Origin: Cyanidioschyzon merolae | Lineage: Eukaryota | Length of the DNA stretch: 64,000 bases | Assembly (NCBI GenBank): GCA_000091205.1 | Contig: AP006490.2 | Reading direction: 5' to 3' (one strand) | Part shown: positions 12,384-53,453 of the stretch, piece by piece | Position numbering within the stretch: position 1 is the stretch's first letter | Layout: the number at the start of each line of letters is the position of its first letter | Notes under the pieces: generated by a model | Databases searched by the model: none | The model's input: only the letters and a program-made list of their open reading frames with translations | What the model was told of the DNA's origin: nothing | Position numbers and translations under genes: made by a program

Positions 12384-13211
12384 TTAATTATCTGCCATTC
12401 GGTATTCTTCAAGTTCCCGGTCGAGTTCCTCAGCACTCTTTGATGGAGCTTCCTGTCCACGAGGGCGCGTTGGTCGCCGCATTCGACGACGCCCACGTGC
12501 CTTCGTGGTGCGTTTCGCAGTTGAATCGTGTTTCTCGGACTCGAAACCCGGGGTCGCTGTCGACTCAGTCTCCATTTGCTGACCATCGCCAGCTGCCTGC
12601 ATTCGAAGTCTGCGTCGACGCCGTGCTCTGCGACGCTCCATCGTTTGGGTGCTCTCGAGCACACGAACAACGTCCCGCACACCGCCCTTGCCGGCGACAA
12701 TGCGCAGTCCGCCAACCGCCTCAGCAGTAGGTTTTGGCACCGGCGGAAGGCGCGCGCCCCGTTCCTTGAGCCGAAGCTTCCGTTTGGGTGTCATAGACGG
12801 TGGAACAGCCGACCTCTGCGTTTGAGGGTGCGCCCCGGACGTATTCAGCGCAGCCGCGGCACCCGAGCTTTCGATCTGCACCACAAGCGGCTGCCCGTCC
12901 AGCGTCAGCGAGTGAAACTGTTTCACCGCGCGCTCTGCTGTTTCCATATCCGCGTACTTGACAGTTGCGACGCCCTTGCTCTTACCCTCACGATCATGGC
13001 GAATGAACGCGGTAATAGTTGGACCAACCGAGTTAAAAAGGTCGGCAATATCTTGAGAAGTCACCGACGGGGCCAGGTTGCTCACGGAAACAACAACAGC
13101 TTTCGAGCCGGGTCGCTGACCGGCCTGAACAACCCTGCGACGCCTTTGGGCTTTTCGAATTCTCCCCTGGGCGACCGCCTTGGGAACTCGCGCTGTGTGA
13201 TCAACTTGCAT
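12384..13211 (-). CDS. ALY/REF (THO complex subunit 4)-type mRNA export adaptor with an RRM.
   Basis: Central RRM ('VVVSVSNLAPSVTSQDIADLF...SKGVATVKYADMETAERAVKQFHSLTLDGQPLVVQ'). R-rich flanks on both sides. C-terminal 'SAEELDRELEEYRMADN' matches the conserved UAP56-binding tail of ALY/REF. Confidence 0.75.
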   Translation of the reverse strand: MQVDHTARVPKAVAQGRIRKAQRRRRVVQAGQRPGSKAVVVSVSNLAPSVTSQDIADLFNSVGPTITAFIRHDREGKSKGVATVKYADMETAERAVKQFHSLTLDGQPLVVQIESSGAAAALNTSGAHPQTQRSAVPPSMTPKRKLRLKERGARLPPVPKPTAEAVGGLRIVAGKGGVRDVVRVLESTQTMERRRARRRRRLRMQAAGDGQQMETESTATPGFESEKHDSTAKRTTKARGRRRMRRPTRPRGQEAPSKSAEELDRELEEYRMADN

Positions 13212-13384
13212 ACGTTAAGCAGAACGGTAAGCGCGCTCTGTGGCGTGTGGAAACAGCAAGGAGATGAAAGCTGCTCTGTGTAGCGCAAGAAAGCGTCGTT
13301 CAACGGTAACGTTCGCGCTAAACTCAGCGGCAACACGCCGGCGTGCCGCGCACTCCGGAACGCTGGGATTCATTTTTTTTTGAA

Positions 13385-14380
13385 TGCGCGGGGCAGGGAG
13401 CATCCACGAAGCTGTATCCTGATGGATCCGTATGAGCGGGTGTTTGTGGAACTTGCTCGCCGTGGGGCGTATGGATGCTTTGGAACGTACCCCAGTGCAG
13501 CATATCTCTGTGTCTGTGTCACGTCCGTGACTAGGAGCATCCACGAAGCTGTATCCTGATGGATCCGTATAAGCGGGTGTTTGTGGAACTTGCTTGCCGT
13601 GGGGCGTATGGATGCTTTGGAACGTACCCCAGTGCGGCATATCTCTGTGTCTTTGTCACATCCGTGACTGGGAGCATCCACGAAGCTGTATCCTGATGGA
13701 TCCGTATGAGCGGGTGTTTGTGGAACTTGCTCGCCGTGGGGCGTATGGATGCTTTGGAACGTACCCCAGTGCGGCATATCTCTGTGTCTGTGTCACGTCC
13801 GTGACTGGGAGCATCCACGAAGCTGTATCCTGATGGATCCGTATAAGCGGGTGTTTGTGGAACTTGCTTGCCGTGGGGCGTATGGATGCTTTGGAACGTA
13901 CCCCAGTGCGGCATATCTCTGTGTCTGTGTCACGTCCGTGACTGGGAGCATCCACGAAGCTGTATCCTGATGGATCCATATGAGCGGGTGTTTGTGGAAC
14001 TTGCTCGCCGTGGGGCGTATGGATGCTTTGGAACGTACCCCAGTGCGGCATATCTCTGTGTCTTTGTCACATCCGTGACTGGGAGCATCCACGAAGCTGT
14101 ATCCTGATGGATCCGTATAAGCGGGTGTTTGTGGAACTTGCTCGCCGTGGGGCGTATGGATGCTTTGGAACGTACCCCAGTGCAGCATATCTCTGTGTCT
14201 TTGTCACATCCGTGACTGGGAGCATCCACGAAGCTGTATCCTGATGGATCCGTATGAGCGGGTGTTTGTGGAACTTGCTCGCCGTGGGGCGTATGGATGC
14301 TTTGGAACGTACCCCAGTGCGGCATATCTCTGTGTCTTTGTCACATCCGTGACTGGGAGCATCCACGAAGCTGCGTCATG
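13385..14380. repeat. Tandem satellite of about 7.2 units with a 137-bp period (one 138-bp unit).
   Basis: The 'atccacgaagctg' unit start recurs at 13401, 13539, 13676, 13813, 13950, 14087, 14224 and 14361. Units are 93-97% identical with mosaic variant sites (gagcgg/aagcgg, gtctgtgtcacgtcc/gtctttgtcacatcc). Confidence 0.95.
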
Positions 14381-14956
14381 TTCGCGTGTGTATCGAGCGT
14401 ATCGCTGAGTGTGAGGTCGTTGTACACAAACGGAATCCGCAAGTAGCCTTCACATCAGCGGGTTCTCATCTCGAAGTCATCAACACTAGAATCCGCTTCC
14501 GGTCATAAACATCCACGACGTGCATGCACTGCATCAAGTTTCTGTATTTAGATCATGTTAAAGGTAGAGTCATCTGAAGAAAGTTACCTTCCGGGGAAAC
14601 CAAGTACATAGCGTATGATTCGGCAGCATGGAAGCGGTGACGCACGCTCGTCTCTTCATGAAGATGATGACGATCATTATCACCGTCGCTGTAGTGCTGG
14701 CGGTGCTCAGAGCATAGACACTGCAACATCAAGAATGTAGGCGGTAGACGCGGACTCCAGGAAAGCGCGTTTCGTTTGCTTCGACTTGGCTTCATCTTGA
14801 TGCACGCGCACCAGTATGAGGCGTTTTCCACGTCTGGATTCGCGAAAGCATCGTGCGTATCAAAACTGACGATATTCAAGCTGTTAAAACGCAATGGCTC
14901 TACAACACGAATTCCACGGATGTGCGAATGCTCTAACTTAGCAGCAATACGACCTG

Positions 14957-16096
14957 TTGGCAACGGTGCGTCCAGCCAAGCGGCCGCGGCTGCCGAGCGA
15001 CTCGACGGCGCCGCTGCGAAACGCAAGGCTACGCATCGACTTGTCGAGTCTACTAAGAGGTATGCATATGCAGGGGGCCTTTGTTGCTGCCGGGAAACCG
15101 CCTTTCAGGATTCACTTAGTGCACGAGAAGCAGCCAAAATTTTTGCACGGTGCTGGTGTGAGGTATAGCGCTCGATCAACTCGTTGGTATCGTTGGAGTC
15201 TACGGTGCACGAGTTCTGAATCGAGGACGACGAATACTGCTGCACCTACCGAGAAACTGGGGTTCATTGGCGGCACTGGGAACATGGGGTCGTCCATCAT
15301 CAAAGGACTCATTGAAGTGCAAGCACTTAGCCCACAGCACATCCTGTGTAGCGGTAGGGATGCTCAGAAGCTGGAACGCTTCTCAATTGAGACCGGTTGC
15401 ACCGCGATGACCGACCTTGCAACGCTCTGTGCCCAGTCGACGGCACTTTTTCTCTGTGTAAAGCCTGCTCAGTGTCAGGCAGTTCTGGAACGTATGGTAG
15501 CCGAAGCCGGCGAGAGTCTGAACGGTAAGCGTCTGATTTCGGTAGCAGCTGGGGTCCCGGTTTCGGCTCTGGAGCGACCACTGCGCGTTGAAGCCGTGGA
15601 ACAGTGCCGGTGCCGGGTACTCCGCTGCATGCCAAACGTGTTGGTTCGGCACGGCCTAGGTGCTATGGCCGTATCACGGGGAACGACTGCAACGGACGAG
15701 GATGTTTCATGGGCGCTGCAGTTGCTCGGGCGCCTGGGCCTGGTTGCCGAGCTCGAGGAGTCTCTCATGGACGCCACGGTGGCTGCCGCTGGAAGCTCAC
15801 CTGCATTTGCGTTTATCTTCATGGAAGCGCTGACGGATGCGGCGGTGAGAGAAGGTCTACCACGCCACATCGCACGCAGTTTTGTGGCGCAGACGCTTTG
15901 TGGTGCCGCCCAGATGGCTCTTCGGGATTCAGATGCTCACTTTGGAGAACTGCGTAACCGTGTCGAGTCACCGGGTGGCACCACAATCGCTGGCTCATGT
16001 GCATTGGAGGAGAACGGATTCCGCAAGGCCGTGATTGCCGCAGCAGCCGCTGCAGCTGCCAAGTCTCGCGCGTTCGCGGACCGCTTCTCCGCGTGA
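14957..16096 (+). CDS. proC: Pyrroline-5-carboxylate reductase with an N-terminal extension of about 90 aa.
   Basis: 'LGFIGGTGNMGSSIIKGL' (NADP-binding), 'RCMPN' and 'SPGGTTIAG' (P5CR signature). Colinear over about 280 aa. Confidence 0.85.
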   Translation: MATVRPAKRPRLPSDSTAPLRNARLRIDLSSLLRGMHMQGAFVAAGKPPFRIHLVHEKQPKFLHGAGVRYSARSTRWYRWSLRCTSSESRTTNTAAPTEKLGFIGGTGNMGSSIIKGLIEVQALSPQHILCSGRDAQKLERFSIETGCTAMTDLATLCAQSTALFLCVKPAQCQAVLERMVAEAGESLNGKRLISVAAGVPVSALERPLRVEAVEQCRCRVLRCMPNVLVRHGLGAMAVSRGTTATDEDVSWALQLLGRLGLVAELEESLMDATVAAAGSSPAFAFIFMEALTDAAVREGLPRHIARSFVAQTLCGAAQMALRDSDAHFGELRNRVESPGGTTIAGSCALEENGFRKAVIAAAAAAAAKSRAFADRFSA

Positions 16097-17283
16097 TCCA
16101 CAGGGCGCCGTGTACGTATCGTGGACGAAAACCTTGCACACGCGCACTAGAGCCCCCTTCAGAGCGCGAGCCGCGTGCAAAGTCGCCGGCGTGGCGATGC
16201 CCTAGCACTGAAGTCCGATACACAACGAGGGACGGGCGCTCACCAGACAAACAGATAGCCAATGGTACATGCTTCGACACTGGACTTGAAGCACTGGACG
16301 CGATGCGTCTGCTTCTTTCATGCGTTTGCGAGACACGCACATCCGCACCTGTCTGTGAGCACAGAGACATCTTGCATGCAACAGCTGGAAGCTGCCGTCA
16401 CCGGGGCTCATGAATGGCTCTGCTCCACTGCCTTGATGTGAAGGTGCGACGACGAGTGAAGCACGCTTGTGGAATGGACGTGCGGTTGTTCTGCTCCCAT
16501 GAGCGTCTCAAGGAATCAGCGGTAGCCGAGTCGCCTGAATGGCCACCGTTTGCGCACTTCGGGGCTGTTCGCCACGAATGTCTGCAGTCGATGATCGCAA
16601 CGGTGCGCTTACGAATACGTATGCGTATCCCGAAACCACATGCCCTTTGCTCCAAGCTTCGAGAAACATGCAGGTATCGAACACATGATTTCCTCGGTCA
16701 TTCCGGGGCAATGCGAGGGCGATGTATGTATCAATGCCCCAAATCGATGCTTTCATCGACGGAGACGGTGGCACGAACGACCAAAAAATCCTAAACAAAG
16801 ACGCCACGGATCGCTCGATGACCTCGATGACGACTGGCAAGGCGAGACGCCTCAATGTTGTGCAGGCAACATGCCTGGGCTTCATCAGACGATGCGTCAC
16901 CCAGGCTGCGTCCGTGTTCAGCAACATGGCGTCCATACCGAGTTCTTTTCCAGGTGAACAGGATCCGGCACTTTCAATCCGTCCGTTCAAGTTATGCACA
17001 TGTGTACGCGGGATCTCTGAATTGCAAACAGGTCGCGGTAAGCGCTGCACCAGTACTTGCAGTGTGACGTCGAGCATCGTTTACGCATTTCCCCGTGCAT
17101 GCTTGCTGATTCATCTCCTCTGACGAACCAATGAATGAATGAATGCTTCTTTTTGAATCGATCATCATCGTCGTCGTCATCGATTGCAGCGAGCGAATGA
17201 CCAGCGAGGTCGTTCAGGGTAGCACTGAACGAGCAGCTGCGAATCCAGCAGCATTGGCGCACTTTCGTCATCAACGACACCTG

Positions 17284-18357
17284 TTATGATCGCGGCACTT
17301 TGGTAACTGTCGAAGGATGCATACCAGAGGCAAGCGCCTCCGACGATGCCGTACCCGTGACCGGCGCATTCTCCTCATAAATAGAGAGCGCTATGTTGTC
17401 AATCAAACGCGCTGAGCCGACGATAACGGCTGTTGATAGAATGGCTACCAGAAGCGTTTGCGGTAACAAAGTATCTGCCTGCAGATCCGGTGGCTGTGGC
17501 TCCAACGGATAGCCTCCACCGAGATCCCGCCATTCCTCTGCATCGGAGAGGCCAATGTACTGGACACAAACCGCTGACTCTGCCTTCAGCACATCTAAAG
17601 CGGCCGTAGCTGCCTCCCAAAGAGCTCCATAGGTTAGCGGTTGCCGCTGCTGCAAACGCCGCTTTCGATACTCCGTCCACAGGGCCTGACCCGCGCTCAG
17701 TGCTCGATACACGACCGCTGCTGTGGCCTGTTCCGCATCCGTTAGGTACTTGTTTCGACTGCTCATAGCGAGCCCGCTGGGTTCTCGGCAAGTCGGTCCG
17801 ATCCTAATGGAAACCGTCATATTCAAATCCTGCACCATTTGTCGCACGACACAGCACTGCTGGGCGTCCTTGGCCCCGAACCATGCGTCGTCCGGTTGCA
17901 CGATATGTAGCAGTTTACAAACAACGGTGGCAACGCCCAGAAAGAACGTCGGTCGAAAAGCGGCCTCACTACGCGGATGTTGACTAGGCCGCCCCGCAGG
18001 GACGTCGATCACTGTTTGTTCTGCAGACCCCCGGGGGTAGAGTTCCGCACTGTGCAGCGGAGCGAAGACTGCGTCCACCCCTAGCTTTTCGCAACGGGCA
18101 AGGTCCGCCTGCTCTGTGCGCGGGTACCGGTCCAGATCTTCACCAGCGGCAAACTGTAGAGGATTCACGAAAATCGTGACAAACGTAAAAGTACCCGATG
18201 ATTTGGCAGCGTTGATCAGGGACTCGTGTCCCTCGTGGAGCGCACCCATGGTCATCACAACTGCAACGCGTGGTGCACTGTTGCGGTTTCGTTGGAGGTC
18301 ATTTCGAAGCGCTCGCACCTCATGAACAGTGCGTAACACACGCATGATGGGAAACAC
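17284..18357 (-). CDS. panC: Pantoate--beta-alanine ligase (pantothenate synthetase) with a C-terminal extension of about 100 aa.
   Basis: Motifs 'TMGALHEGH', 'FGAKDAQQ' and 'REPSGLAMSSRN'. The N-terminal 270 aa are colinear with PanC. Confidence 0.9.
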   Translation of the reverse strand: MFPIMRVLRTVHEVRALRNDLQRNRNSAPRVAVVMTMGALHEGHESLINAAKSSGTFTFVTIFVNPLQFAAGEDLDRYPRTEQADLARCEKLGVDAVFAPLHSAELYPRGSAEQTVIDVPAGRPSQHPRSEAAFRPTFFLGVATVVCKLLHIVQPDDAWFGAKDAQQCCVVRQMVQDLNMTVSIRIGPTCREPSGLAMSSRNKYLTDAEQATAAVVYRALSAGQALWTEYRKRRLQQRQPLTYGALWEAATAALDVLKAESAVCVQYIGLSDAEEWRDLGGGYPLEPQPPDLQADTLLPQTLLVAILSTAVIVGSARLIDNIALSIYEENAPVTGTASSEALASGMHPSTVTKVPRS

Positions 18358-18710
18358 GCTCGCTCCTAATGCGTTCCGTTCTGGAAGTGGAACTCTGCGA
18401 CACGCTGGAGCCTGAACGCTACCAGGCTGTACGCTCGAGCGTCAGCAGCTGCACGTGCAGCGCCAAGAACGTCGCGTTACCCGGCAACCTAGACCAGGTC
18501 ACTGTCGTTTCCAATGGAGCACGCCAAGCTCAATTGTCACTTTCTTGACTCTTGAACACACATGCATACACTCGAACAGTGCAAGCGTCAAAAGTTCAGC
18601 GTCTCGAACGCAGCCGCATCGAGAAACGGGACCATTGCCCGCCACAAGGCCGCCATTCGCCGAATACACAACTTGTCATTCTGGTGAAGCGTCACCTCCT
18701 CTGAAACCAT

Positions 18711-19250
18711 ATGTTTGAACCACCGGCATACATTCCTGTGACTGCTGCTCGATCTGACTTATTTCGCAGCCCGCTTGTCAAGTCCGGTGCTTCTGCTTGT
18801 GGCACAGGACGGTTATACGTTGCCAGAGCGACCAGTAGCCTGAGGAGTTCAGGGCACCGGGCGCGCGTTCGACCACTGCATTGTTCCTCGGGACTGAGGA
18901 TGCTTCTGCGGGGGTTTCCCAACCCCGGAGCTTTCAACTCCGACGGAAAACGGCGAATTATTGAAGAACTTGTGCAGTTTCCCACAGAATTTGAGTTCAA
19001 AGTTGTTGGCCTGCGGCAGGGCGACTTTACCGATGACGTCGTGGGACTCGTTGCCGGTGCGCTGCAGCGCGCAGAAAACCTCGACGTTCGCAACACCACC
19101 AGCCGAGACGACCGCGTACGAATCACCAAGGTGAGAGATCGAGGCAAGTACCGCTCACTAACGATTGTTGCGTTCTGTGAGACCGGTGCTCAGGTATACA
19201 GCGTGTACGAGGCTTTAGAGCGCGACCCGCGAGTCCTGTTCAAATTCTGA
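18711..19250 (+). CDS. DUF493/YbeD (UPF0250)-family protein with an N-terminal presequence.
   Basis: C-terminal 90 aa: 'FPTEFEFKVVG...GKYRSLTIVAF...QVYSVYEAL..DPRV' fits the YbeD family pattern. Confidence 0.5.
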   Translation: MFEPPAYIPVTAARSDLFRSPLVKSGASACGTGRLYVARATSSLRSSGHRARVRPLHCSSGLRMLLRGFPNPGAFNSDGKRRIIEELVQFPTEFEFKVVGLRQGDFTDDVVGLVAGALQRAENLDVRNTTSRDDRVRITKVRDRGKYRSLTIVAFCETGAQVYSVYEALERDPRVLFKF

Positions 19251-46284: not shown

Positions 46285-46521
46285 CAGTGACGTCGACACC
46301 ACCGTGTGCAGACGCTGTGCAGGTAGTGAGGCACACACCGTCGCTGCGCGACCGCCGCGCCAGACGTGATCGCCTCTGCCGGGTGGCCAGCGCTCCTGGC
46401 GTCAAGCTTTGTAGGGTATGCTTCAAGGCTGCACTGGGGTAATCTAGTCGAGAGTAGACTCATCTGGGGTACTTCGTTCGCGTATAGCTCGCTCGGGGAA
46501 CAGCGGTGCGTGTCAACGCGA

Positions 46522-46657
46522 GCTGGGTTGTTCATTGGTTTGTGGGTCTTGATTCGAACGAATTGTCGGGTTTATTGGAGGTAGCGCGTGCTGGGTTGTA
46601 CACTGGTTTGTGCGTCCTTATTCGAACGAGGTTTCGGGTTTATTGGAGGTAGCGCGT
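46522..46657. repeat. 2 x 68-bp tandem duplication in the region upstream of the PNPase gene.
   Basis: Units 46522-46589 and 46590-46657 ('gctgggttgt.ca.tggtttgtg.gtc.t.attcgaacga...tcgggtttattggaggtagcgcgt') are about 88% identical. Confidence 0.85.
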
Positions 46658-52961: not shown

Positions 52962-52986
52962 CAGCAGCAGCAGCAGCAGCAGCAGC
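52962..52986. repeat. (CAG)8 microsatellite.
   Basis: Direct read. It lies within the unassigned ORF 52812..53336 and encodes poly-Q in that frame. Confidence 0.9.
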
Positions 52987-53453
52987 CGCATATCAAAGTG
53001 ACCAATCCGAATAGGCGACCGAGAATTCGAAAACGACGACGCATGAGTCCCAAAGCCCTCATTGCTGCACGCGTATTGCCGAAGCTGTCCATCCGAAAGC
53101 AAGGATTCTTAGAACTCGTGCCCTCTGTAACTGAACAGTCTCGTCATGGTCCCGTCGGGCAAACCGTTTTTCTCGACAATCTCCCGTCTTCTTTTTCAAG
53201 TGCACTCCTTCGCTCTATGATCAGCGAGAAGGGCATTTTATCGTTTTCCACACTGGCATCCGACGATGAAGGCCCTCCAGGATCCCCGACTTCCACGTCG
53301 ATGCCGTTCGCTTGGATCTCTTATTTGTTCAAATGAACGCAGTTTGAACGCATCTGCGATGAACCGCAAAAAAGCGTCTGATGGCATTCGCCTAGATGTG
53401 GAACGCATTGGAGATGTTCATTCTCGAAACGCTCTGCTTCCCTGAACCAACTA

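Follow-up and report, generated by a model that had tools for sequence, protein, structure and literature searches.

[quoted passage not shown] The locus raises the question of what such an array is, how it came to stand upstream of both genes, and whether its units encode or control anything there. The DNA analysed here, referred to below as the window, is a 64,000-nucleotide stretch that is probably part of chromosome 8 of C. merolae 10D. A search of the literature returned no specific description of this array or of minisatellites in C. merolae. Here we describe the anatomy of the repeat, the pattern of variation among its units, its distribution among strains and relatives, and the sequence-encoded functions that it might be expected to reveal, and then weigh the explanations that could account for it.

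Results

Anatomy of the array

Analysis of the window with TRF placed the array at 13396-14373, with a period of 137, 7.1 copies, 97% matches, 0% indels and a score of 1851. When its units were listed in register, the array, which has no assigned strand and was also recovered as a repeat family, resolved into seven full units of 137 bp, starting at positions 13396, 13533, 13670, 13807, 13944, 14081 and 14218, and a partial eighth of 19 bp (GGGAGCATCCACGAAGCTG, 14355-14373, again without strand). The sequence of this partial unit is identical to the opening 19 bp of every full unit, and the array thus amounts to 7.14 copies rather than a whole number. A 55-nt core of the unit, allowing up to two mismatches, occurs seven times in the window, with 0 occurrences expected from shuffled sequence, and the spacing from one start to the next is exactly 137 throughout. 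The head-to-tail organization proposed in the first-pass annotation is therefore upheld by TRF, by the core count and by the spacing, but two of the details that accompanied it need correction, as every unit is 137 bp long with no indels, leaving no place for the single unit of 138 bp, and the pairwise identity between units is 95.6-99.3% rather than 93-97%. The array is 978 bp in length and has a GC content of 54.7%, which is the genome value, while the GC skew of the unit is only 0.15. Both edges are sharp in the window; on the left GCGCGGGGCA is followed immediately by GGGAGC, and on the right GAAGCTG is followed immediately by CGTCATG.

The flanking genes and their spacer

The gene to the left of the array (12384-13211, minus strand, with its ATG at 13211) encodes a 275-residue ALY/REF-like RRM protein (Pfam RRM_1, 1.7e-15) that is 100% identical to a C. 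merolae 10D protein carrying the NCBI name 'unknown transcriptional coactivator'. A Pfam match of this protein to FoP_duplication, the C-terminal region of the FoP/ALY type, falls just under the cut-off. To the right, on the plus strand, P5CR occupies 15062-16096 and comprises 344 residues (Pfam P5CR_dimer, 3.3e-35, and F420_oxidored, 3.8e-14). The start of this reading frame had been placed at 14957, which would put the array about 580 bp upstream of it, but the codon at 14957 is a TTG, and the frame opens there because the program that listed the ORFs applies the bacterial code. Other ORF starts quoted for the window may be extended in the same manner. The eukaryotic start of P5CR is most likely the ATG at 15062; the protein translated from this first ATG is 344 residues long, independent gene calls give the same length and the exact product is on record. 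Elsewhere P5CR is 339 residues in two relatives and 365 in Cyanidium caldarium.

With the first ATG of P5CR at 15062, the array ends 688 bp upstream of that gene. On the opposite side the true edge at 13396 sets it 184 bp from the ALY/REF start, and not about 175 bp as estimated previously. The array does, as had been claimed, lie between two divergent genes, but it does not fill the promoter region; it accounts for 978 bp (53%) of a spacer of 1,850 bp, and unique DNA of 184 bp (13212-13395) and 688 bp (14374-15061), neither segment being assigned a strand, adjoins the two start codons. The 184-bp segment is likely to be the core-promoter region of the ALY gene; it contains a T9 run at 13373-13381, which reads as A9 on the ALY sense strand. 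The 688-bp segment is likely to hold the promoter and 5' untranslated region of P5CR. This longer segment also contains, at 14453-14516 on the minus strand, a weak match to a C/D-box snoRNA (Rfam sR28, 17.3 bits against a gathering threshold of 39, E = 0.13), with an internal UGAUGA and a near-terminal CUGA, which is probably due to chance. Housekeeping genes flank the array as a whole, neither end of the window is nearer to it than 13 kb, and the window contains no telomere repeats.

Coding capacity, RNA and chromatin signals

On the minus strand the array gives rise to seven overlapping spurious ORFs of 99-141 residues, beginning MPHWGTFQSIHTPHG, which together run across 13215-14366 and were identified from the ORF list and a count of stops. 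The start codons of this staircase, at 13640, 13777, 13914, 14051, 14188 and 14325, are 137 bp apart. Such long reading frames arise because the unit on this strand presents a single stop in each three-frame cycle of 411 nt, against an expectation of roughly five. The unit length is not a multiple of 3, and the ORFs each run into a stop after 2.9 units. Searches of these ORFs against Pfam returned no family, and their only relatives in the databases are ORF calls at the same locus. The staircase of fake ORFs noticed earlier is thus present in the DNA and is an artefact of it, and a protein-coding repeat is ruled out by the unit length, the stops, the lack of a Pfam family and the lack of homologues from outside the locus.

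When Rfam was searched inside the array with E values of up to 10, only two matches to lncRNAs were obtained, both at chance level with E above 4, and at the gathering level nothing was found in the entire window. ARAGORN detected no tRNA. Folding of the unit on both strands and in two registers, compared with dinucleotide shuffles, gave z values of -0.2 to -1.7 and no extra stability. On the strength of the permissive and gathering-level Rfam searches, ARAGORN and the folding, an array of small-RNA genes was rejected.

The length of the unit had been described as near nucleosomal. The nucleosome core, however, is 145-147 bp, so that a unit of 137 bp is too short to accommodate one nucleosome each, and WW/SS dinucleotides have no power in the array at the 9.8-11.4-bp harmonics (P 0.12-0.95), and hence no 10-bp phasing. 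The size of the unit and the lack of helical periodicity together speak against a nucleosome-positioning unit, which was rejected, and the description has no support.

Each unit does contain two symmetrical elements, an 8-nt inverted repeat (AGCATCCA/TGGATGCT) and a 14-nt palindrome (GTCAC-N4-GTGAC). Outside the array, the inverted repeat is found 2 times in the window against 2.3 expected and the palindrome 0 times against 0.1 expected; the ACGT core of the palindrome has been lost from four of the seven units. Because AGCATCCA and GTCAC-N4-GTGAC occur at chance frequency beyond the array, a promoter motif shared with other genes was discarded as a candidate.

A mosaic of variant units

No two of the seven units are the same. 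They differ at seven positions of the unit (1, 35, 39, 63, 104, 121 and 128), five of which are informative. All four allele combinations occur in seven of the ten pairs of informative sites, including the non-CpG pair 39/121, although the excess of CpG transitions, which make up four of the seven variable sites (35, 63, 104 and 128; binomial P about 0.011), means that some of these four-gamete failures could stem from recurrent mutation and not from exchange. Linkage between sites 121 and 128 is complete. The four-combination result bears out the earlier view that variant states are shuffled among the units, and the mosaic is, as had been proposed, of the kind that unequal exchange or gene conversion produces; the same states recur at other unit positions in other strains. 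Along the array, site 39 reads G,A,G,A,G,A,G, and site 63 also alternates in the first four units, a pattern suggesting that part of the expansion proceeded through a dimer of 274 bp.

CpG methylation is not supported as the source of the CpG-transition excess, since the ratio of observed to expected CpG in the window is 1.17, with no depletion, and a bisulfite reanalysis places nuclear 5mC in C. merolae at background level (bioRxiv 10.1101/2022.10.24.513474). Possible causes of the excess are deamination driven by heat, at 42-45 C, or chance.

Independent assemblies and strains

Look-ups of the ALY and P5CR proteins, together with a DNA scan, gathered about 17 independent short-read contigs from JGI, ENA and Logan samples that are ~99% identical to the window. 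Most of these end inside the array (L003, L005-L007, L009, L014-L018 and L020), and two more, L008 and L010, stop slightly short of it within the unique spacer. Where the array is traversed it appears as 2.14 copies (L001, L002 and L019) or 1.14 copies (L004), but the assemblies used k of up to 141 against a unit of 137 bp, so that these counts are artefacts of collapse and are uninformative on the true number of copies. In the short-read metagenome and SRA assemblies of C. merolae-like algae examined, the array is a systematic breakpoint and collapse trap. As to the concern that the repeat might itself be an assembly artefact, its existence is established by many independent assemblies, whereas the copy number of seven is given by the reference only.

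In all contigs that reach them, the left junction (GCGCGGGGCA followed by GGGAGC) and the right junction (GAAGCTG followed by CGTCATGTTCG) are unchanged. The unit adjoining the ALY flank, in contrast, varies among strains at sites 39, 63 and 104. Its variant states read GGGCAGG in the window, GGGCGGG in L002, L003, L017 and L018, GGGTGGG in L001 and GGATAGG in L006 and L019. More generally, the states at sites 1, 39, 63, 104, 121 and 128 recur across strains in new combinations. The sharing of junctions and the new combinations of variant states point to a single origin followed by turnover. Boundaries that stay fixed while the flanks are about 0.5-1% different are compatible with weak constraint and equally with youth.

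A single locus, absent from relatives

Within the 64-kb window there are no further copies of the unit beyond chance-level matches of 11-19 nt. When the JGI metagenome collection was scanned for a 30-nt core, five contigs were recovered, each 98.5-99.5% identical to the ALY or the P5CR flank described here, and a comparison of a 131-residue fake ORF with about 5.8 billion predicted proteins returned two clusters, both located just upstream of the ALY gene. The viral and prokaryotic genome collections contain no exact match to the core, and a viral or prokaryotic source of the unit was rejected on this basis. Among the window, the metagenome contigs, the ORF-derived proteins and the viral and prokaryotic collections, the unit is confined to this locus. 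The term satellite, which had been applied to it, does not suit a single array of 978 bp whose unit is present elsewhere in none of the collections searched. The suggestion that copies be counted genome-wide was followed through searches of the window, the metagenome contigs and the ORF-derived proteins, which revealed no dispersed copies.

The gene order DUF493, pantoate-beta-alanine ligase, P5CR and ALY (12384-19250 of the window), with P5CR and ALY as a divergent pair, is kept in three relatives, namely the lineage represented by L011-L013, in which ALY is 66% identical, Cyanidiococcus yangmingshanensis (L021) and Cyanidium caldarium (L022). The spacer of the pair is about 1,212 bp in the L011-L013 relative, at most about 970 bp in Cyanidiococcus yangmingshanensis and 378 bp in Cyanidium caldarium; that of C. 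merolae measures 872 bp once the array is subtracted. In none of the three does the P5CR/ALY spacer contain a tandem repeat, and sensitive blastn searches of L011-L013, L021 and L022 with the unit and with the whole spacer produced chance-level matches only. Thus, with neither an array nor a recognizable unit in the three relatives, the array is specific to the C. merolae lineage. A single-copy progenitor was also sought in the relatives and was not recovered, the blastn matches being at chance level and the spacers too diverged to tell whether one existed.

Discussion

Taken as a whole, the data make it likely that the array is a lineage-specific, minisatellite-like duplication at a single locus. 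Unequal exchange, slippage or gene conversion would drive its turnover, and no function encoded in its sequence could be detected. We infer that the repeat began with the tandem duplication of one 137-bp segment of the spacer, possibly triggered by a direct repeat of 19 bp at either end of this segment; alternatively, one end unit may have been cut short at a later time. The duplication would have occurred after C. merolae left its nearest sequenced relatives and before the ~99%-identical metagenome strains split, and part of the expansion that followed probably passed through a 274-bp dimer. Later reshuffling of the units would have taken place by unequal sister-chromatid exchange, replication slippage or gene conversion. 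That the array is neutral is argued from the absence of signal in the searches described above. Its effect on the locus would probably be a passive one, in that the two promoters stand about 1 kb further apart and the array may serve as a length-variable marker.

The position of the repeat invites a regulatory interpretation. According to this the array would be a VNTR in which each unit supplies a binding site, such as the palindrome or the inverted repeat, and the copy number would tune ALY/REF and/or P5CR, or the array would insulate the two promoters from each other. Consistent with such a role, both genes have the array upstream of them, at 184 and 688 bp from the respective ATGs, its boundaries are constant in every C. 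merolae-like strain sampled, and each unit carries the palindrome of 14 nt and the inverted repeat of 8 nt. These same elements, however, are at chance frequency elsewhere in the window, and the ACGT core within the palindrome is missing from four of the seven units. Moreover, three relatives have a working divergent pair but not the array, their spacers ranging from 378 to about 1,212 bp, and at 54.7% GC the array is not AT-rich or nucleosome-excluding as the promoter repeats of yeast are. We consider a regulatory VNTR to be unlikely, although a regulatory or chromatin role of this kind is the foremost of the alternatives. In C. merolae H3K27me3 covers repeats and transposons, and the genome has very few transposons; it is conceivable, but distinctly improbable, that the array is a fast-evolving regulatory or chromatin element, acting as a length-variable spacer, an insulator or an H3K27me3 island that tunes ALY/REF and/or P5CR. 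Were this the case, an mRNA-export adaptor (ALY/REF) and/or proline synthesis (P5CR) would be tuned between hot-spring populations, and the repeat would provide a transposon-poor genome with a means of evolving expression. Small non-coding RNA genes, whether snoRNA, spliced-leader-like or 5S-like, could in principle be clustered here with one gene per unit. Tandem arrays with units of 100-300 bp often encode small RNAs in protists, and the weak C/D-box-like match at 14453-14516 (E = 0.13) is close by, although outside the array. Within the array, on the other hand, there is no Rfam family save the two chance-level lncRNA matches, and no tRNA, the unit folds like shuffled sequence on both strands and in both registers, and the relatives lack the array; such a cluster is scarcely credible.

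Two further explanations concern the nature and the accuracy of the array rather than its activity. Membership of a dispersed, centromeric or subtelomeric satellite family would be in keeping with a unit of more than 100 bp and with the hint of a dimeric higher-order structure. Centromeres of C. merolae have been described as short AT-rich CENH3 peaks, and each chromosome has a single CENH3-enriched region. The GC content of the array is the genome average, however, its extent is only 978 bp, its setting is one of housekeeping genes at least 13 kb from the window ends in a window free of telomere repeats, and the unit is found neither in the rest of the window nor in the retrievable C. merolae-like contigs off this locus, making this reading very improbable. 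It could also be proposed that the array is real but that its copy number or unit order in the reference is wrong, having been assembled from Sanger reads that did not reach the length of the array. A length of 978 bp is indeed at or beyond that of one Sanger read, short-read assemblies collapse the array to 1.14 or 2.14 copies or break within it, and the 2007 finishing paper reported mis-assemblies of earlier date totalling more than 20 kb (PMC1955436). Against this, BAC clones were used to finish the genome, to a standard given as '100% complete' (PMC1955436), and as the seven units are all distinct, overlapping reads of at least 400 bp would tile them uniquely. In addition, at least two tandem copies, bounded by the same junctions, are present in independent assemblies of many samples, and so the array itself is genuine. 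An error in the reference copy number or order accordingly has little likelihood.

How, then, does the array, taken as a minisatellite-like duplication, compare with known repeat systems? Minisatellites and VNTRs form arrays of roughly 0.1-30 kb, with units that are usually 10-100 bp. The C. merolae repeat resembles these in being a head-to-tail array of ~1 kb at one locus in non-coding DNA, with interspersed variant units and a mosaic that differs between strains, and the mechanism that we propose is the one inferred for minisatellites. It differs from them in that the 137-bp unit exceeds 10-100 bp and lacks the classical G-richness and strand bias. As the unit is above the conventional size, the array is best termed minisatellite-like, or a low-copy long-unit tandem repeat. 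Satellites with higher-order repeats, such as the 171-bp alpha satellite and the 178-bp CEN180 of Arabidopsis, likewise have units of more than 100 bp, and the hint of a dimer at site 39 recalls their organization. In contrast with alpha satellite and CEN180, however, the present array has seven copies and not thousands, and occupies one apparently euchromatic locus flanked by genes, where nothing points to a centromere or telomere. Unstable tandem repeats in the promoters of yeast, reportedly described by Vinces et al. in Science in 2009, are said to be mostly short-unit, AT-rich and nucleosome-excluding. Like these the array precedes genes of a unicellular organism whose genome is compact and poor in introns, and a change in its copy number could in principle alter promoter spacing; unlike them it has a long unit and average GC, and no effect on expression is known here.

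The first-pass annotation regarded such a repeat as unusual in a compact genome. This view is not sustained, as the Ensembl TRF track lists 3,335 tandem-repeat features in the 16.5-Mb genome of C. merolae (PMC11050394), and further long-unit duplications are present in the window and in a relative. The former, at 46517-46657, consists of 2.1 copies of 68 bp with 87% matches, and the latter, unrelated to the array, consists of 1.8 copies of 83 bp at 2688-2840 of L011, within the corresponding locus. Low-copy tandem duplications seem to be recurrent in the intergenic DNA of these algae. The window also contains a run of CAG trinucleotides at 52962-52990, with 9.7 copies and 92% matches. With seven copies of 137 bp, the array ranks among the larger tandem repeats of this genome but is the same kind of thing.

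For biology at large the array carries little weight, as it is one more low-copy tandem repeat among the thousands annotated. Its value may lie closer to the organism. Seven units that can be told apart, set between unique flanks, would make the array a practical marker, read by PCR or long reads, with which to type strains of C. merolae and check laboratory sublines. The alga is, moreover, readily engineered by homologous recombination, and the array would thus offer a clean test of whether a promoter-proximal repeat influences two divergent genes.
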